This document shows positions 19 through 47,264 of a DNA stretch of 64,000 nt, one piece after another. Numbering within the stretch: the stretch's first letter is position 1; each line of letters starts with the position of its first letter. The notes beneath the pieces are model-generated. The model made no database searches. It had not been told where the DNA came from and worked only from the letters and a program-made list of their open reading frames with translations. The DNA is taken from IMG/VR virus record IMGVR_UViG_3300014205_000014, positions 1 through 64,000 of that record; one strand, 5' to 3'. A program made the translations under genes and the position numbers. The stretch is from a virus (taxonomy: Duplodnaviria > Caudoviricetes).

Positions 19-1293
19 GTGTTAGCGCAAGCGCCCGTTGCCGACAATGCGCCCGCGAATAAGCCGGAAACGATCACTGCCACGCAATGGGACACGGTAG
101 CGGAGGCGTGGCAGCAGGGTAAGGCTGTAATTCGTGACTGTTTTGGTGATATTACAGCTAAAATTGAGCAACTGCCAAATGGTGATTATGAGGCAACGGA
201 CATCTACGGCGAATCGTGGTTTGTAAAGCCTGTATCTGCGAAATACGGAACATTCACCGTTGAATGGTTTACCTTACCAAATCCGCTACCTGACCCAGAA
301 GATATTGCAGATAATGAGCGCGGCGAGGAGTTGGTTGAATTATTCAAACGTGTGGAAGTTCGTTTAGAATATTTGAATAAATCTGCTATTGAGTTAGGGC
401 TACCAATTGCTGAGGAAACAACCCTTGAACAGTGGCTTAATAACGCCGCTGATTATCTTCCGATATGGTATAACGACGCTATCAAAGATAATGCTCAATT
501 GTCACTAAATCAGCAACCGGCAGCCGAACCCGCGAAGGCGGCGGGGGAGGGGGAGCTTGTCCGCTACAGTGACGACTTTGGTTATATCATGAACAATGAA
601 ACTATTGACTATATCATCCTCCAAACACCAACGGATGGTCACAGTAGTTGGGTTGCTATTCACCCCTCTATTCAACAAGCCATCAACGAGGGGTGGGTTG
701 AGGTCATTTATTCAGCGAAATACGTGAACGATCAAGGCAAAGGTTACACGGTTAAATTGACTGAAAAGGGACGAGGACGGCGTAGAGCTTTTATGGCAAT
801 GACACAACTAACTGAGATAGACACCTTGCAAGCCGAACTCACCACCATGAAAGCCGAACGGGACGCGGCGCTGAACCGTAAAACGTGGCCTTATAGTGAC
901 TATCAATTTGACTATATCCCATATGCGCTAAAGATTACAGACGGTGATAATGAGCACCCCACTAATTACGGAGTGGTCAAAGTTACTCACAAGGCGCATG
1001 GGGCTACTGACACTTTCGTGGAATACAAAGAGGTTGAACGCCTCGAAGCCGCCCTAGCCGCCGCCCGACTGCGGGAAGCGAGGTTACGTGAGGCGCTGAA
1101 GCCGTTTGCGGAGGCGGGTAAGACGATTAAACAAGTCCCTCCGCCTGAAGTCGAGCTAGAACCTGATAGCCAATTGGTTCTAGACGAGAACATTGTTAAG
1201 GTATATGGCATAAGCGACACGGTAACTATAGGCCATTTCATGCAAGCCGCGTTAGCAGCGGGAAGCGAGGGGGCTAGCGATGGCAGCAAGTGA
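19..1293 (+). CDS. Phage hypothetical protein with C-terminal coiled coil (Ead/Ea22-like mosaic); probably 5'-truncated by window edge
   Basis: 424-aa ORF; heptad-like C-terminal segment (EVERLEAALAAARLREARLREALKPFA); overlaps next gene. Confidence 0.6.
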   Translation: MLAQAPVADNAPANKPETITATQWDTVAEAWQQGKAVIRDCFGDITAKIEQLPNGDYEATDIYGESWFVKPVSAKYGTFTVEWFTLPNPLPDPEDIADNERGEELVELFKRVEVRLEYLNKSAIELGLPIAEETTLEQWLNNAADYLPIWYNDAIKDNAQLSLNQQPAAEPAKAAGEGELVRYSDDFGYIMNNETIDYIILQTPTDGHSSWVAIHPSIQQAINEGWVEVIYSAKYVNDQGKGYTVKLTEKGRGRRRAFMAMTQLTEIDTLQAELTTMKAERDAALNRKTWPYSDYQFDYIPYALKITDGDNEHPTNYGVVKVTHKAHGATDTFVEYKEVERLEAALAAARLREARLREALKPFAEAGKTIKQVPPPEVELEPDSQLVLDENIVKVYGISDTVTIGHFMQAALAAGSEGASDGSK

Positions 1294-1627
1294 ACTTATT
1301 AAATGGCTTAACAGTGATGATACGGGGGTGTCCTCTAAGGCTATTGTAGCCTATATGGAGGGCATTGAACCGGGGCGCTTTGGATACGACTACCCGCACG
1401 ATCCTTCTGATTTAGGGCGCTGTTTACGGTTGCTGGATATTATGCCGGAATATAAGGCACGGTTAAAACACATGAAACACTTATCACCTGTATGGCGTAA
1501 CCTTATTCAGAACTGGAACGAAATCAGCGCTTTGTACTACGAAGAATATCCAACTGGCAGAGCGCCTAAATGTTATGACCGGATGAAGGCATTAATCGAA
1601 GCAGGACGCAATGAGCAAGTTATCTAG
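1280..1627 (+). CDS. Phage hypothetical protein
   Basis: 115-aa ORF, SD GAGGGG upstream, overlaps neighbours; YPHDPSDLGRCLRLL motif. Confidence 0.75.
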   Translation: MAASELIKWLNSDDTGVSSKAIVAYMEGIEPGRFGYDYPHDPSDLGRCLRLLDIMPEYKARLKHMKHLSPVWRNLIQNWNEISALYYEEYPTGRAPKCYDRMKALIEAGRNEQVI

Positions 1628-1727
1628 CCACGCCCACAGTCACCCCGTAAGCCGCAACCCTCAACGGGGCGGTAGGGGGCGGGAAACGGTAAATATTAGG
1701 TCTTATCGGAAGGGAAGGAAATCACAA

Positions 1728-2237
1728 ATGAACACACATCGAGTAGAAATCACAGACGCTAATTTTGAGCCAGTCATTAAGTATTTGGCTGATGCAATCA
1801 AGTGGCTCGACAGTGACCAGCCAGAGAACGCGGTCATGAGCCATCATGGAATATACCTTGCAGCGCCGCATGATGAAAGTGTTCAACTTAGCATCAGTCT
1901 GACACCGGCGGGCGCTAGCGGGCGACCAGTATTAGTTTTTGGCAAGCCATACATTGAGGATAAATCATCCGTTACGGGCGCGGCGCAGGATTGTTTTACT
2001 ACTGATGAGATCGAAGTCATTCAACAGGGTATCGCCTCGGCGGGTGGTGAAATTCTTGACGCTTGGAACGGGGCAGGAATGTATTCAGCGTCATTTGCTT
2101 TGGCGCGATTTGCGGGTGACAAAGTTGCGACACTCGTTCGCAATTATTCCCGACACATGCACCAGTATGGTTTTTCTTGGCCTAACGAAGTTCAGGCTTT
2201 GTACGGCCTAGCTGTGAAGCCTGAATGCTGGCATTGA
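1728..2237 (+). CDS. Hypothetical protein (start moved to ATG 1728)
   Basis: SD GGAAGGA precedes ATG at 1728 within the 1611..2237 ORF. Confidence 0.7.
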   Translation: MNTHRVEITDANFEPVIKYLADAIKWLDSDQPENAVMSHHGIYLAAPHDESVQLSISLTPAGASGRPVLVFGKPYIEDKSSVTGAAQDCFTTDEIEVIQQGIASAGGEILDAWNGAGMYSASFALARFAGDKVATLVRNYSRHMHQYGFSWPNEVQALYGLAVKPECWH

Positions 2238-2271
2238 TTCGCATCACATAATAAAGACTCTCAGCAACAAA

Positions 2272-2292
2272 AACCCGGCACACCACCGGGTT
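2272..2292. terminator. Terminator-like hairpin AACCCGG-N7-CCGGGTT with A-run on the left (U-tail on - strand)
   Basis: Perfect 7-bp inverted repeat in intergenic space. Confidence 0.4.
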
Positions 2293-2315
2293 CATAGGCA
2301 AGAAAGGAGCAAGAT

Positions 2316-2873
2316 ATGATCTTCCGCCAATACGAGGCGATTATCCGCAAACTCAAGACTGAAACACGTAGGACTTCAGAGAAGGATACGTACAAAGTGA
2401 ACCATGAGTACAGCGTTGTGCCAAAACGAGCACAACCGACTGTTTACTACCAATGGTGTTCCGACTTCAGCGCATGGGGGTATGAAAGCATTGCCGTTAC
2501 TCCGCGCTTAGAAATTTGGCATGAACTGCACGGGGATCGGTTTAAAACGCCCAAGGTTGTTACCATGCCGCCATATTGGGCAGGATTGGAAAACTGGAAA
2601 CCCCTCAAGGTACTGATCCTTGAGAAACGATGGGAACACCTGCACGACATTGACGAAGCAGGGGCTATCGCGGAGGGGATTCAGGTTAGAGACAGTCTTG
2701 ATATTAACGGTCATCGTATCGAGGTGTTTTATCACGATCTTTCCCGCACAGTCTTTTTTAGTGCTGTAGAGGCTTACCAGAACCTTTGGGATTTGATAAA
2801 CAGTAAGTCCAAAATCTATAGATGGAGTGCGAACCCTTTGGTGTGTGTGCATAGGTTCGAGATAGTTGAATAA
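2316..2873 (+). CDS. ASCH/PUA-like domain protein
   Basis: N-terminal I..K.KTETRR and C-terminal W.ANP.V.V..FE, typical of phage ASCH proteins; SD AAGGAG. Confidence 0.7.
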   Translation: MIFRQYEAIIRKLKTETRRTSEKDTYKVNHEYSVVPKRAQPTVYYQWCSDFSAWGYESIAVTPRLEIWHELHGDRFKTPKVVTMPPYWAGLENWKPLKVLILEKRWEHLHDIDEAGAIAEGIQVRDSLDINGHRIEVFYHDLSRTVFFSAVEAYQNLWDLINSKSKIYRWSANPLVCVHRFEIVE

Positions 2874-2986
2874 CAGAATCGTATCTGTACTTTTAGGCTA
2901 TTTGAGCGTAAAATAGAGTATCAAAAGGTAGCGCCCACACTGCTTGTAACAGTTGGGCGCTTGAGTAGTCAAAGGAACTAACTACT

Positions 2987-3508
2987 ATGAACAATGATAC
3001 AGGATTCTTGCCGTCCCCGCCAGATAACACTATCATTATTCAGTTGACTAAAGGATACGCAACAATCGTTGATTACGCTGATTTAGACTTGCTGCGATGG
3101 AAATGGAAGGCTTCGGGGAAGTATGTTCGCGCAGCGCGAAATGTATCAATTAAGGGGAAGTGGCACACTATATTAATGCACAGGGCAATTGTTGAGCGTA
3201 TGATTGGCAGAACTCTTGATGGTTCAGAACATGTAGACCACATTGACGGGAATCCGCTTAATAATAGTCGATCAAACCTCCGCATAGTAACCAATACTCA
3301 AAATGCTTGGAATCAGCACGCTTCAAAGAGTAACACGAGTGGATACAAAGGGGTGTGCTGGCATAAACGTCAACAAAAATGGGTTGCACAAATTTGCGTA
3401 AATAGAAGGGTGATCCACCTTGGAACGTTTGAAACACCAGAACAAGGGCATAAAGCATATTGTGAAGCGGCTAAACAATATTTCGGTGAATACGCTAGAT
3501 ATAGCTAG
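2987..3508 (+). CDS. HNH endonuclease with C-terminal AP2 domain (free-standing homing endonuclease)
   Basis: VDHIDGNPLNNSRSNLR HNH motif; NTSGYKGV..WVAQI...HLGTF AP2 signature. Confidence 0.92.
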   Translation: MNNDTGFLPSPPDNTIIIQLTKGYATIVDYADLDLLRWKWKASGKYVRAARNVSIKGKWHTILMHRAIVERMIGRTLDGSEHVDHIDGNPLNNSRSNLRIVTNTQNAWNQHASKSNTSGYKGVCWHKRQQKWVAQICVNRRVIHLGTFETPEQGHKAYCEAAKQYFGEYARYS

Positions 3509-3509
3509 T

Positions 3510-3593
3510 AGCATCAACGGGAAGTCGAAGCAGTATTGTTGGGCAGCTAACCCGGCAGTGCAAGTCCATAAGTTTGAACTGGTCGAGGAGTAA
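3510..3593 (+). pseudogene. Orphan second copy of the ASCH gene 3' end (SINGKSKQYCWAANPAVQVHKFELVEE*)
   Basis: Aligns without gaps to LINSKSKIYRWSANPLVCVHRFEIVE* at the end of 2316..2873; no start codon. Confidence 0.8.
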
Positions 3594-3604
3594 AGGAGCA
3601 AATA

Positions 3605-3844
3605 ATGACGGAACCTCTTAATATCGTGAAGATTACAAGCCAGAAGGCAATTAGGGAAAACACCAACGCACAGGGGCTATTCATAACTGTCATTCAGTCA
3701 GAAGGTGTTGCTGATGACGGGAAATTCTACCGCTGGCTAAACGATCATTGGGGTGATGAACAAGGGTGGGTGCACGAAAGCGGTATGTACCTTGTTATTC
3801 CACTTGGTCGCACCCAAGTTGACACGCCAAACGAACACTGCTAG
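3605..3844 (+). CDS. Hypothetical protein
   Basis: 79-aa ORF with SD AAGGAG. Confidence 0.7.
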   Translation: MTEPLNIVKITSQKAIRENTNAQGLFITVIQSEGVADDGKFYRWLNDHWGDEQGWVHESGMYLVIPLGRTQVDTPNEHC

Positions 3845-27494: not shown

Positions 27495-28547
27495 ATGGCA
27501 AAAAGTAAATACAATTTAATGGCGTTGGACAGCGGGAATGCTCAGGTTAAAGGATTGACTGATGAAGGCGAATGTGTGTTCCCCCATTCGTTACGCCCAT
27601 TAACCAGTAAAGAAATAACCAACCTGCAAGAACGCGGGGATGAAATAGATACTTCGTCAAATGTATTTAGTGTTAATGGGGTTTATTATTCTGTTGGCAA
27701 TAAAGCGCTTAAAAAGGGTTCAGGGGCAGCACTATATGGTGAAGCGCGGTATCGTCCCGACTACTACGGTATTCTTGCCGCAATTGCCATGTTTAAAGCG
27801 TTCGATGACAGCAAGAAAAATGTTTATCTCTATGGATCACATACCCCCAAGGATTTGATCTATCGTCAAGACCTTGTGAACTCAGTTATGGGTAATTGGG
27901 TTGTCTCAGGGAGTGGCGTGACAAAATCTTTTGATGTTGTTGCCGGGGCAGGGTTTGATGAACCTGTTGGAGCTTTTCGCCATGCAACCTTGGGTAATGA
28001 TGGAAAATCTACTCGCGGTGAAATCACTCTGCGGCGTGGTGAAACCTTAATTGTGGATGTTGGAGGCTTCACGCTAGGGTTCTCTATCGCAGAGGACGGT
28101 AAAATAGATTACGACTCTTCAAATACCGAAGTGGTTGGTATCTTAGATGTACTCGACAATCTTGAAAGCGCCATTCGCTCTAATTTCCGAAAAGAACTCA
28201 AGGGTGCAAATGAATTAAAGGCCATGCGGCTTCGCTCTGCGTTGTCCAGTGGCATTTATGATGCTGCGGGTGCAGGATACCTTGAAGTTCACGAAGAAGT
28301 AAAACAGGCTTGTGATTTACTGATGCGTGATATTTTGCAGTTTTTTGAGACTTACGGTGGCACAACCACATTCCATTCCATATTGATTGCAGGCGGAGGT
28401 GGGGCATTGATGGAAAAATACATCCGCACCAATATTGACCATCCGCACATCTTCGTTGCTGAAAACAATCGTGATAGAATGCATATGGCAACTGTTATGG
28501 GCGGCATGAAAATTCTCAAGATATTAGAAACAGCAGGGAAACTATGA
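27495..28547 (+). CDS. parM: ParM/StbA-family actin-like segregation ATPase
   Basis: ALDSGNAQVK (phosphate 1), EPVGA, IVDVGGFT (phosphate 2), IAGGGG (adenosine). Confidence 0.85.
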   Translation: MAKSKYNLMALDSGNAQVKGLTDEGECVFPHSLRPLTSKEITNLQERGDEIDTSSNVFSVNGVYYSVGNKALKKGSGAALYGEARYRPDYYGILAAIAMFKAFDDSKKNVYLYGSHTPKDLIYRQDLVNSVMGNWVVSGSGVTKSFDVVAGAGFDEPVGAFRHATLGNDGKSTRGEITLRRGETLIVDVGGFTLGFSIAEDGKIDYDSSNTEVVGILDVLDNLESAIRSNFRKELKGANELKAMRLRSALSSGIYDAAGAGYLEVHEEVKQACDLLMRDILQFFETYGGTTTFHSILIAGGGGALMEKYIRTNIDHPHIFVAENNRDRMHMATVMGGMKILKILETAGKL

Positions 28548-28942: not shown

Positions 28943-29397
28943 TGCGCTATATACCGGATAATGAAGATCGTGAAGATTCGTACAGTCATATCTACGATTC
29001 AATAGATGATGATGAACCTAAAAGAAAACCTAAGCTATCAACATTCACAATGAACTTTGCACGATCATTGGGGTATGGTGGAAAAAGAAAACGATCTGAA
29101 AAGGTGGAACGAACTCCAAAAAATGGATTTGTGTATCTCCTTAAAACACCATTGGACGGTACTCTTTTTAAGATTGGAAAAGCGAGTAATCCGTATAATC
29201 GCTTAAAAACGTTCAATGTTAAACTTCCGTTCCCGATCCAGTATGAATGTCTTATTCAGACTACGGATATGAGTTTATTGGAAAGGGAACTCCACACTAA
29301 GTTTGCATCTAAACGCCTTGATGGGGAGTGGTTTCGGTTAGATCAGGAAGATGTTGAATATATCCGCACATTAGCAAACACAGAAACGGTTCTGTAA
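28939..29397 (+). CDS. T5orf172/MUG113 GIY-YIG-like nuclease
   Basis: GFVYLLK...FKIGKASNPYNRLKTF...LERELHTKFASKRLDGEWF. Confidence 0.88.
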   Translation: MMRYIPDNEDREDSYSHIYDSIDDDEPKRKPKLSTFTMNFARSLGYGGKRKRSEKVERTPKNGFVYLLKTPLDGTLFKIGKASNPYNRLKTFNVKLPFPIQYECLIQTTDMSLLERELHTKFASKRLDGEWFRLDQEDVEYIRTLANTETVL

Positions 29398-29413
29398 ATA
29401 GAGGAGGGTAGAT

Positions 29414-29824
29414 ATGGCGATTGATAGTCAAATAAGTAAAGCAACAGATGCTCAATTAGCAGCCAACATTGCTAGCGCATACAAGGCAATTGAGAGTTTA
29501 GAGTTAGAACTAGATGGATACCGCGCTGTGATCGTAGACTGTCGGGCGGAATTGGATCGACGGGCTATGAAAGCGCAGGGGTTTAGTTCTGGTGATAAAA
29601 TCATCATTACTCAGGAGTTTATTGACCATAAAGAGAAGGTGGCTCATGAGGGTTGTCTTTATGATTTAGGGACTGTTTGGATCATTAACAACGTTAATAA
29701 TGATTATGCTTATATCGATTGTCAAGAAAATGGACATGCGATTTACCAAACGATCTGTCCGTTGTCTATCGCACAGGATATGCGCCGTGCATGGCTCGAA
29801 CGAGAAGGGCAGGAGCAAAAATGA
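29414..29824 (+). CDS. Hypothetical protein
   Basis: SD GAGGAGG. Confidence 0.7.
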   Translation: MAIDSQISKATDAQLAANIASAYKAIESLELELDGYRAVIVDCRAELDRRAMKAQGFSSGDKIIITQEFIDHKEKVAHEGCLYDLGTVWIINNVNNDYAYIDCQENGHAIYQTICPLSIAQDMRRAWLEREGQEQK

Positions 29825-30252
29825 GCGACACGATCAAGATCATCTATAAAGGGGAAAACGGCGAAGAAGTCAGTCAAGAAGTTCCCTATGTTGTAGATGG
29901 GGAAAGTATTCGGTTTGAGATGCCTGTTTCTGGAACGCTTTTGGGTGTGGAATTGGATGGTTACAGAGAACTTCGTTTCGGAAACGGCTACTCACGCGGT
30001 GGTGTTGATGCTGCGGATGTTGAGTGGCCCTCCATACAGTTTTTTGAACCAGAAGGAATCATTATCTTCAAGGAAAATGATTACGAAGATGAAGACGACG
30101 ATGATATTACACAGTGGTCGGATGATTTATTGGATGAAAAGATTGCTGAGTGGCGAATGTTTGTCGATGGGGATCGAGAAGAGCTAGAAACCAGTGAAAA
30201 GTATCTTGCCGAGTTTTTGGCGGAGAGAGAACGCCGTAATAAGGGGAAATAA
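29821..30252 (+). CDS. Acidic hypothetical protein
   Basis: SD AGGAG, ATGA overlap. Confidence 0.7.
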   Translation: MSDTIKIIYKGENGEEVSQEVPYVVDGESIRFEMPVSGTLLGVELDGYRELRFGNGYSRGGVDAADVEWPSIQFFEPEGIIIFKENDYEDEDDDDITQWSDDLLDEKIAEWRMFVDGDREELETSEKYLAEFLAERERRNKGK

Positions 30253-30262
30253 CCCCTCTAAC

Positions 30263-30292
30263 TTGACAAAGCAGAATCGACTCTGCTATACT
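30263..30292 (+). promoter_or_regulatory. Near-consensus sigma70 promoter with the operator filling its spacer
   Basis: TTGACA 30263-30268, TATACT 30287-30292, GCAGAATCGACTCTGC 30271-30286. Confidence 0.85.
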
Positions 30293-30295
30293 CAT

Positions 30296-30387
30296 AGACA
30301 GTAAGCGCATTGCCCTCAAGCGCTTGCCTCCTCTAGCTACTGTCTCGAACGACGAAAGAACCTATCCCTCATAGGTTCTTTTGTTTT
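30296..30387 (+). ncRNA. Putative small regulatory RNA with exposed anti-SD (CCUCCU)
   Basis: Promoter directly upstream, closing stem AGACAGTA/TACTGTCT, terminator downstream, no ORF. Confidence 0.6.
30355..30387. terminator. Bidirectional intrinsic terminator at the arm junction
   Basis: AAAGAACCTAT-CCCTC-ATAGGTTCTTT, 11-bp stem with A/T tails. Confidence 0.85.
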
Positions 30388-30389
30388 AG

Positions 30390-31064
30390 TTATTCTGAGT
30401 GGTGAACTTTCAAAACGATAAGCCAACCATTCCCACACTTATCATCTGTTGGTCGCCATGTTATTGGTGACATCTCAGTGTGATAGGTTTCGTTCACATA
30501 AGCCACTAACTCCTGCATCAGTTCAAGGGTCCAAACGAACACATGTCCTCTCTTGCCCCCTGCCGCAGCAACAACCTCATCAGGAAGGGTGTCTGGTGTC
30601 CATAATTCACTGTGGGCGCGAATGATTTCATCCAAGGTGCTGATAGGACGTGCCTTATCTGGCTCATGAGCATCTCGCTTTGGAGCAATGATAAAGATCG
30701 TCCCCTTATCCTTCACAACACGCCACCATTCCAGCAGCGCTTTAATTGGATCAGAGAAATGTTCCCATGCGTGAGAATTGATGATGTAATCCCATATTTG
30801 ATCTTCAACAGGGATATTGTCACCTTCTGCCTTGATGTCGATTTCATCATATTTGCCGCAAAATTCAATTTCGGCTAGGCGAAACACTTCAGTATCGGCA
30901 TCTCCCGGACTAACATTGATAGAACCCTCTAACCCAAAACTGTTATGTGCGCCAGAACCGATTTCAGCGCCCGTACCTTGGCAGTATTTCAGTGCCAACG
31001 CGGACTTCGGGAAGTTGATATTGCGACCACCATCTACATCGACTACGGTTTGACGTATTGCCAT
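30390..31064 (-). CDS. Class I SAM methyltransferase (Methyltransf_11-like)
   Basis: GAEIGSG, YIINSHAWEHFSDPIKALLEWWRVVKDKG. Confidence 0.85.
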   Translation of the reverse strand: MAIRQTVVDVDGGRNINFPKSALALKYCQGTGAEIGSGAHNSFGLEGSINVSPGDADTEVFRLAEIEFCGKYDEIDIKAEGDNIPVEDQIWDYIINSHAWEHFSDPIKALLEWWRVVKDKGTIFIIAPKRDAHEPDKARPISTLDEIIRAHSELWTPDTLPDEVVAAAGGKRGHVFVWTLELMQELVAYVNETYHTEMSPITWRPTDDKCGNGWLIVLKVHHSE

Positions 31065-31751
31065 CTATTTTGCTCCCAAGAACTTACACACACACATACT
31101 GTCTGCCTGTTCAATGATTTGCAACTCACCCATTGCAACCGCTACATTGACAACCTGTGTCGGCCCTGTCCACGCCCCGACATCATGAAATATGACCGTT
31201 GCATCAGGAGTTAGAAACTGTCGAATGTGCTTGTAGTCGGCATACACACTGGCGAAGTCGTGGAGTCCATCGAGAAAAACCAAGTCTACAGGACTCGGCG
31301 GCACATGGTCAGTAAACCGCCGCTGCACCAAACTGACATAACTTTCCAGATGGGCGCGTTGGATGGTCTGCTGAAACCCCTCAAGTGATGAACCCTCATT
31401 GCGCGGTTCACCATCCATCAACCCATCTTTCACTTGAGAGGGGTAGGATAAATCACCCGAATGGGGATCAACGGCTTGTAACCATCCACCCTGATGCAAG
31501 GCTAACACGCCGCCGAGTAGGACAGTGGACTTGCCCTTGTAACTACCATCTTCAACCCACTGTGCATCTTTATGCCAATGTTGTTCAGCGGTGAGCCATA
31601 GCAAATCGCCTTCTGCGGGGGATAGCCAACCCTCTGTTTCGTTGCTAATTCGCTCATAATCCAATGGCGTAATCTCAGGCATTGGAACAAGCGCCTCTTT
31701 CTTTGCTTCCGCTGCGATCTTGCTGACACCCGTTTTCTTTGGTCTAGCCAT
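31065..31751 (-). CDS. Class I SAM methyltransferase (Methyltransf_24-like, O-methyltransferase)
   Basis: GWL, VEDGSYKGKST, VDPH, DLVFLDGLH, VIFHD. Confidence 0.85.
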   Translation of the reverse strand: MARPKKTGVSKIAAEAKKEALVPMPEITPLDYERISNETEGWLSPAEGDLLWLTAEQHWHKDAQWVEDGSYKGKSTVLLGGVLALHQGGWLQAVDPHSGDLSYPSQVKDGLMDGEPRNEGSSLEGFQQTIQRAHLESYVSLVQRRFTDHVPPSPVDLVFLDGLHDFASVYADYKHIRQFLTPDATVIFHDVGAWTGPTQVVNVAVAMGELQIIEQADSMCVCKFLGAK

Positions 31752-46527: not shown

Positions 46528-46607
46528 GTCAATTCCTTCCCGCATACGAGGGTTGACATTGGCATACCCCATATGCTACAATTAATCGAAAAGGGAGAAC
46601 CGATTCT

Positions 46608-47264
46608 GTGAATACCTTCAAACCAGTATTGAACTATGAAAACGATTACGAAGTCAATGAGTGCGGTGTTGTACGCCGGATAAGAGATAAGGGGAACTCC
46701 AAAGCGGGTCATATAATGAAGCAACGTCTTGATCGCAAAGGATACCCGATAGTTTATCTCTCTAAAAACGGCAAAGATAGACATCCTCGTGTTCACAAAC
46801 TTGTAATGGAGGTGTTTGTTGCTCCGATGCCAAAGGGCTACACCGTCAATCACAAGAATGGTATTAAGACGGATAATCACCTTGGGAATTTGGAGTATAT
46901 GACCCCATCCCAAAATTCGCTTCATGCTCAACACGATCTTGAACACTATAAAGTCACTGCCAAACTCACCAACGAAAAGGTCATTGAAATACTTAGCATT
47001 TTGGCTACAGGGGTTGATTGTAGAAAAGTTGCCAAAATGTTTAGTGTATGCGACAACACTATCAATGAGATCAAGAACGGTAACACTTGGAAGTGGATAC
47101 CACGTCCCGACATGAGCAAGACCAAGAATCGCAGTAAGTTGAGCGCCCAAGACCGCACAGAAATTCGTAAACTTCTGAACCAAGGCGTTCCTCAAAAGGA
47201 TATTGCCGAAAAGTTCAGTGTTACCCAATCTCATATTAGTCATATCCTGCACAACAAACGCTAA
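46608..47264 (+). CDS. NUMOD4-HNH homing endonuclease with tandem C-terminal HTHs, antisense in the late operon
   Basis: FKPVLNYENDYEVNECG, VNHKNGIKTDNHLGNLEY. Confidence 0.9.
   Translation: MNTFKPVLNYENDYEVNECGVVRRIRDKGNSKAGHIMKQRLDRKGYPIVYLSKNGKDRHPRVHKLVMEVFVAPMPKGYTVNHKNGIKTDNHLGNLEYMTPSQNSLHAQHDLEHYKVTAKLTNEKVIEILSILATGVDCRKVAKMFSVCDNTINEIKNGNTWKWIPRPDMSKTKNRSKLSAQDRTEIRKLLNQGVPQKDIAEKFSVTQSHISHILHNKR

Follow-up and report, generated by a model that had tools for sequence, protein, structure and literature searches.

The window, the stretch of 64,000 nucleotides analysed here, is the first 64 kb of an IMG/VR record of 80,167 bp with direct terminal repeats. Its genes are laid out in two convergent arms, with plus-strand genes reaching position 30252, minus-strand genes ending at 30390, and a 137-bp gap separating the two. 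The plus-strand (early) arm encodes a primase-helicase, a DnaD-like protein, a UvsX-like recombinase, DNA methyltransferases and an actin-like protein of the ParM type; the minus-strand (late) arm encodes the portal, head and tail genes, glycosyltransferases and methyltransferases. The collection of cultured phages contains no relative that could be found by DNA, by portal protein or by ParM-like protein. The features of the arm junction are the following, L016, L020, L021 and L022 being contigs of related phages that are described below:

30263-30268, plus strand: -35 hexamer, TTGACA, located by promoter scan; TTGAC is kept in all four homologs
30271-30286, no strand assigned: 16-bp palindromic operator, GCAGAATCGACTCTGC, occupying the promoter spacer; a copy of the phage-wide motif RCAKA-N6-TMTGY
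30284-30292, plus strand: extended -10 element, TG-n-TATACT, with TG at 30284-30285 and TATACT at 30287-30292
30296-30345, plus strand: 5' domain of the RNA, comprising an outer stem, an inner hairpin and an unpaired anti-Shine-Dalgarno (anti-SD) sequence, according to the predicted fold and unpaired probabilities
30327-30341, plus strand: conserved core CCUCC...GCUAY, the proposed seed, present in the window, L016, L020, L021 (partial) and L022 (weaker)
30351-30387, plus strand: intrinsic terminator with a CCCUC loop, its stem (30351-30385) followed by a T-run; it also closes the early arm
30390-31064, minus strand: SAM methyltransferase gene, the last of the late arm, lying outside the RNA and used as the syntenic anchor for finding homologs

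The promoter at 30263-30292, TTGACA-N18-TATACT, matches the sigma-70 consensus at 11 of 12 positions, has in addition the TG of an extended -10 element, and tops the 14 sites found in a scan of 25-36 kb. A first-pass annotation, made from the sequence alone, had called it the strongest consensus promoter; that description is accurate for the 14 sites of the 25-36 kb interval, whereas across the 80,167-bp genome the promoter is only the joint best sigma-70 match, a second 11/12 match lying at 46553 on the plus strand. The positions that the same annotation had assigned to the promoter, operator, stems, CCUCCU and terminator all agree with the sequence. The second promoter (46553-46620, plus strand), which is the sole other 11/12 match genome-wide, serves an HNH homing-endonuclease gene at 46607 that is inserted backwards in the late arm, and an operator-like half-palindrome overlaps the ribosome-binding site and GTG start of that gene. 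Pattern scans of IMG/VR and of the JGI metagenomes for the promoter and operator combination returned chance matches only.

The palindrome in the spacer belongs to a network of sites. Exact CAGA-N6-TCTG sites number 10 in the phage, and the looser form, RCAKA-N6-TMTGY, occurs 30 times against 1.4 expected from shuffles. The motif recurs in true relatives (8 sites in L012, 7 in L016 and 4 in L020) and has 0 occurrences in mosaic phages sharing only the ParM-like module. A copy is present at the sRNA promoter in all four of the complete copies of the unit that are described below: the window and L020 have it within the spacer, in L016 it overlaps the -35 element, and in L022 it abuts the -35 element on its upstream side. 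Since every sRNA promoter has its operator copy, control by a palindrome-binding factor appears to be a conserved property of the unit. We infer that the palindrome is a repressor site, its placement within the spacer implying repression; because the operator fills the space between the -35 and -10 elements, access to the promoter would be gated by a phage regulator. The neighborhood of 64-68 kb, where an operator-binding regulator was sought, yielded nothing beyond an HNH gene whose wHTH signal is weak. An identical 14-nt palindrome core also occurs in the spacer of a TTTACA-N17-TATAGT promoter on two JGI metagenome contigs (L026, 150-330, and L033, 615-800, both on the plus strand), where a tRNA gene follows the promoter immediately; the occurrence may be fortuitous or may reflect use of the site on the host side.

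The candidate RNA that would start at this promoter is about 90 nt long and consists of a Y-shaped 5' domain followed by a terminator hairpin with a T-run. The segment 30294-30387 has a minimum free energy of -34 kcal/mol (z = -6.2), a stability that is not attained by any of 200 shuffles. In the predicted structure, the outer stem pairs 30296-30303 with 30338-30345, and the inner hairpin, around 30304-30325, carries UUGCCCUC (30309-30319) in its loop. The anti-SD stretch GCCUCCUCUAG (30326-30336), with CCUCCU at 30327-30332, is predicted to be unpaired, the unpaired probability of CCUCCUCU being about 0.9. The proposal of a fold with an exposed CCUCCU and a terminator is thus borne out by structure prediction. 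With the last nucleotide of the RNA at 30387 and the methyltransferase stop codon at 30390-30392, the terminator lies 3 nt from a convergent stop codon and the RNA overlaps no coding sequence. The sense strand is devoid of any open reading frame (ORF) with a ribosome-binding site; the statement that the promoter serves no ORF therefore holds, and a reading of the locus as the gene of a small peptide was rejected for the same reason. ARAGORN detects no tRNA or tmRNA cloverleaf at the RNA locus, and a tRNA-like reading was discarded on that result.

No relatives came out of DNA and protein searches of IMG/VR in which the two flanking genes, the gene for the ParM-like protein and the second methyltransferase served as queries. 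Following up homologs of the ParM-like protein led to phages that are mosaic and unrelated, that have portals of other types and that lack an RNA of this kind. Relatives were reached instead by contig walking from a 63%-identical portal homolog in the Logan and ENA assemblies, which arrived at the L016 junction, and through homologs of the junction methyltransferase, which gave L020, L021, L022 and L023. The junction methyltransferase is 66-70% identical among these phages. The RNA unit is found at the arm junction of L016, L020 and L022, on the strand converging on the methyltransferase, making four complete copies with that of the window. The L021 contig ends 39 nt beyond the methyltransferase with the conserved core already in view, and constitutes a partial copy; L023 lacks the unit and has at its junction only a symmetric A-tract/T-tract terminator. 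The order of elements is the same in all four complete copies: TTGAC(A/T)-N17/18-TAnAnT, then a stretch free of ORFs (76-90 nt in the three relatives, about 90 nt in the window), then a strong terminator. What flanks the unit is far less constant, in that the early-arm neighbors are non-homologous between relatives, and an HNH gene is inserted between the methyltransferase and the RNA terminator in L016 and L020. That the unit has outlasted gene replacement on its early-arm side and insertions on its late-arm side speaks for the unit being itself under selection.

The four copies barely align outside the promoter and terminator, to which the reliable part of the MAFFT alignment is confined, and the 5' domains are predicted to fold differently in each. 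Against this background of drift, anti-SD-like clusters (CCUCC, CUCCU, CCCUC or UCCUC) occur 8 times in the four RNAs, with 1.37 expected and 0 of 5000 shuffles reaching 8, a statistic that has to be read with the kinship of the homologs in mind, four copies not amounting to four independent trials. Structure prediction leaves the main C-rich motif unpaired in each copy, but by different structural means: at the Y junction in the window, in a 6-nt hairpin loop in L020, in a single-stranded linker in L022 and in a large loop in L016. An extended form of it, roughly CCUCC(U)-N0-6-GCUAY, can be made out in five copies (weaker in L022, partial in L021); UGCCC stands in the first hairpin loop in the window, L020 and L022; and CCCUC occupies the terminator loop in the window and L016 on stems that are unlike in sequence. 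Cofolding of each RNA with SD oligonucleotides gives a net gain of -5 to -11 kcal/mol, always by way of the C-rich motif. That these motifs are retained while the rest of the sequence drifts suggests that they are under selection. The notion of a self-contained non-coding transcription unit gains accordingly from the relatives, in which the unit, its link to the operator and the exposed anti-SD are kept despite heavy divergence. As judged from these sequence comparisons, the RNA is a new family of a familiar kind, found in an uncultured 80-kb phage and in at least three of its relatives.

The reading that we prefer, and hold to be about evenly balanced between right and wrong, is that of a regulator-gated, trans-acting phage sRNA that blocks ribosome-binding sites. 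A host RNA polymerase of the sigma-70 type would start at the near-consensus promoter at 30263, access to which would be gated by the palindrome-binding regulator of the phage, and transcription would stop at the strong hairpin, which serves the early arm as its terminator too. In the RNA, CCUCCUCU would lie exposed between one stem and the next, and two hairpins would each offer CCCUC in the loop; these unpaired C-rich sequences would pair in trans with the purine-rich SD regions of phage or host mRNAs and so exclude 30S subunits. Selectivity would be conferred by the conserved extension (...GCUAY) and by the second loop motif. We infer the production of the RNA, its action by base pairing and the kind of site that it would target.

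Pairing with AGGAGG ribosome-binding sites had been suggested at the outset, together with expression in the lytic phase, which is an assumption. One part of the pairing suggestion stands, namely that the C-rich motif is exposed (by prediction) and binds SD oligonucleotides in cofolds, whereas the ribosome-binding sites of the phage match the RNA no better than they match flank-shuffled seeds. Duplexes were sought at all candidate starts, across the whole genome on both strands, on the contigs of the relatives against their own seeds, and at 122 curated gene starts, the control for the last of these keeping the seed core and shuffling its flanks. The top duplexes with real ribosome-binding sites are all in the early arm, at genes 1280, 18702 and 29414, the last of which offers a 9-nt perfect match, UAGAGGAGG. 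These phage targets do not rise above the control, in that 11% of the flank-shuffled seeds reach the minimum energy observed over the 122 starts; the scan of all candidate starts, the whole-genome search for complementarity, and the scans of relatives' contigs against their own seeds gave background only. A GUAGC-SD pattern selects gene 18702 (function unassigned) and gene 20492 (UvsX-like), without statistical support. The target may lie in the host, or recognition may proceed by a short seed alone, as in other C-rich sRNAs. A 14-nt ribosome-binding-site block, AAATAGAGGAGGGT, in which the seed of the window RNA finds its best match, precedes both gene 29414 (window 29396-29416, plus strand) and a mini-ORF of L016 (about 15535-15475, minus strand) that is 15 codons long and lies just upstream of the sRNA promoter.

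Other explanations of the unit compete with this one, and each draws on some of the same facts. That the RNA unit is always found exactly at the convergent junction is what would be expected of an insulator or cis-antisense RNA dealing with late-arm read-through past the methyltransferase: a strongly expressed RNA would anneal to the perfectly complementary read-through transcript and present RNase III with a double-stranded substrate, or the converging polymerases would interfere with each other, and the early arm would be shielded from antisense transcription, by a logic reminiscent of lambda OOP. A scan of the junction detected a terminator on the plus strand only and none on the minus strand for the late arm, and the relative without the RNA (L023) has its symmetric terminator in place of the unit. 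Insulation leaves unexplained, however, why C-rich motifs should be enriched and unpaired amid drift and why operator and promoter should be tied together, and the RNA overlaps no coding sequence; as the explanation of the unit it is unlikely. Since the late arm has no minus-strand terminator at the junction, pairing with read-through late transcripts stays live as a secondary role. The absence of the unit from L023 would suit a unit with no RNA function at all, either a leftover promoter beside the arm terminator (the remnant of a deleted gene, for example) or a site at which a regulator acts at the level of DNA; the ribosome-binding site and 15-codon mini-ORF just upstream at the L016 junction could be such a gene remnant. 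But a remnant would not keep a near-consensus promoter, an operator, a length of about 80-95 nt, an enrichment of unpaired C-rich motifs and freedom from ORFs, and retention spans four lineages in which the neighboring genes have been replaced. We consider the absence of any RNA function quite improbable; given the conservation seen in sequence, a remnant promoter in particular appears unlikely.

Two further readings take the anti-SD sequence itself as their point of departure. In many bacteria, the 3' end of 16S rRNA is CCUCCUUUCUA, to which the conserved CCUCC(U)...GCUA bears a resemblance, and the L020 copy, CCUCCUUGCUA, agrees with it at 10 of 11 positions, although this tail may not be that of the host. 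The RNA might then imitate the 16S tail or act as a protein decoy, titrating strong SD sites in general or binding a factor that recognizes the 16S tail. Conservation does run 3' of the CCUCC core in five copies that have no structural role in common, and the target search singled out no specific phage ribosome-binding site above the control. The resemblance is short and C/U-rich, though, and in the window and in L016 it is interrupted by insertions; moreover, a 16S-like tail outbinds the sRNAs on generic SD oligonucleotides in cofolds, and titration would therefore need very high RNA levels. We give this reading little credence, and give as little to its fuller form, in which a mimic of the anti-SD 16S tail, switched by the global regulator of the phage, would vie with ribosomes for strong SD sites or decoy a factor that recognizes the 16S 3' end, and would thereby re-rank the messages that are translated during infection rather than regulate a single gene. 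The remaining possibility, an antitoxin-type RNA, was raised by the first-pass annotation and fared badly. As a type I antitoxin, the RNA would have an anti-SD simply because the opposite strand encodes a small toxin whose SD is complementary to it, and that strand does have GGAGG followed by a start codon in four of four copies, the GGAGG of L016 opening a 38-aa ORF with a hydrophobic C-terminus. Yet the antisense ORFs, which measure 70, 38, 25 and 12 aa, are mutually unrelated and share neither sequence nor reading frame relative to the operator, three of the four start with TTG, that of the window runs antisense through a real gene, and the interval that separates the hairpin from the methyltransferase stop codon is too short to accommodate a toxin promoter. 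This reading, which we regard as very improbable indeed, is rejected as largely refuted by what the sequences contain. The 38-aa ORF (L016, 15438-15554, plus strand) is antisense to the promoter and the 5' end of the sRNA, has a good SD and an ATG start, and is without counterpart in the other three copies.

The Rfam comparison that had been proposed as a check brought no identification: there is no family match at 29500-31200 even at E <= 10, and none in the whole window at the gathering score. The C4 covariance model likewise gives no match at E <= 10 in 29500-31200 and none at the gathering score in the window, and the RsaE/RoxS model gives no match. By these comparisons the RNA is a member of none of the RoxS/RsaE, FsrA, RNAIII and c4 families. 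In mechanism, the sRNA envisaged here would be closest to RoxS/RsaE and FsrA and to RNAIII and, among phage RNAs, to c4. RNAIII of S. aureus has C-rich hairpin loops, one of which is the loop of its terminator (hairpin 14), and the C-rich motif in the terminator loop of the phage RNA is like it in this respect. Pairing of C-rich regions with mRNA targets is an established sRNA mechanism, exemplified by RoxS and FsrA (PMC8216469). Like the phage RNA, RoxS/RsaE, FsrA and CsfG of the Bacillota are short RNAs transcribed from sigma-A/sigma-70 promoters that end at an intrinsic terminator and leave several C-rich motifs unpaired; the motifs of these host RNAs pair with G-rich ribosome-binding regions (PMC8216469). 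The likeness to the RoxS/RsaE type is one of working principle only, the phage RNA having the several unpaired C-rich regions; those RNAs are host-encoded, whereas the one described here is phage-encoded, gated by a phage operator, and built on CCUCC/CCCUC rather than on UCCC/CCCC runs.

Phage P1 offers a parallel for the operator network, its C1 repressor having many operators scattered over the phage genome. The c4 RNA of P1 and P7 (Rfam C4) blocks a ribosome-binding site via loop sequences (PMC12197685). It would have in common with the present RNA this use of loops and a promoter under a phage repressor with many operators; it is, in contrast, cut from the leader of its target transcript, icd-ant, whereas the present RNA is a separate terminated unit with the next gene on the opposite strand. 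Lambda OOP is alike in its length (~80-90 nt), in its own promoter and terminator, and in its location at a point of convergent transcription, but it acts in cis as an antisense RNA, its overlap being with the 3' end of cII, whereas the present RNA overlaps no coding sequence and conserves a seed of the trans type. Trans-acting sRNAs of phages and prophages, including DicF and AsxR/AgvB, have been reviewed (PMC12197685). DicF and AsxR/AgvB are likewise phage-borne regulators that base-pair with host or phage mRNAs; they differ in belonging to enterobacterial prophages, in being mostly Hfq-dependent, and in having no relationship of sequence or model to the RNA of the window.

Known regulatory RNAs are few in phages outside the enterobacterial prophages, and almost none of them come from uncultured lineages. 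The junction unit is a compact case, in which a strong promoter, tied into an operator network of ~30 sites, would drive a 90-nt RNA that carries a short conserved seed. If the preferred reading is true, it would place translational control by a C-rich sRNA within the timing circuit of a phage and would provide a new RNA family for the annotation of metagenomic phages. The working principle is already well known, and the gain would be incremental unless mimicry of the 16S tail turned out to be true.

Several observations on the surrounding genes were made along the way. The best genome match of the methyltransferase is a contig binned in a MAG of the Aggregatilineales (Chloroflexota); as that genome has no match to the portal protein (P0001), the match does not count as evidence of a host. 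On a contig of an Aggregatilineales MAG (L034), a 54% identical methyltransferase adjoins an HNH-AP2-type gene, and beside these lies a non-coding stretch of ~170 nt that includes GUCCCUAC and ends in a terminator. The HNH genes inserted at the junctions of L016 and L020 (NUMOD4 + HNH_3) both have in their 5' leaders a sub-threshold match to the Rfam family int-alpA (RF02996; gathering score 35.8), at L016 14723-14794 (plus strand, 25.5 bits, E = 0.008) and at L020 3311-3377 (plus strand, 31.3 bits, E = 0.002). The actin-like (ParM-type) gene of the window (27495-28547, plus strand) is a mosaic module, with 50-58% identical homologs in L004-L011, phages that have other portal types and one-directional genomes; the actin-like genes of L016 and L020 have diverged beyond detection by tblastn. 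In L012, a 901-aa gene with an intein-splicing domain (988-3693, plus strand) lies upstream of the packaging genes.
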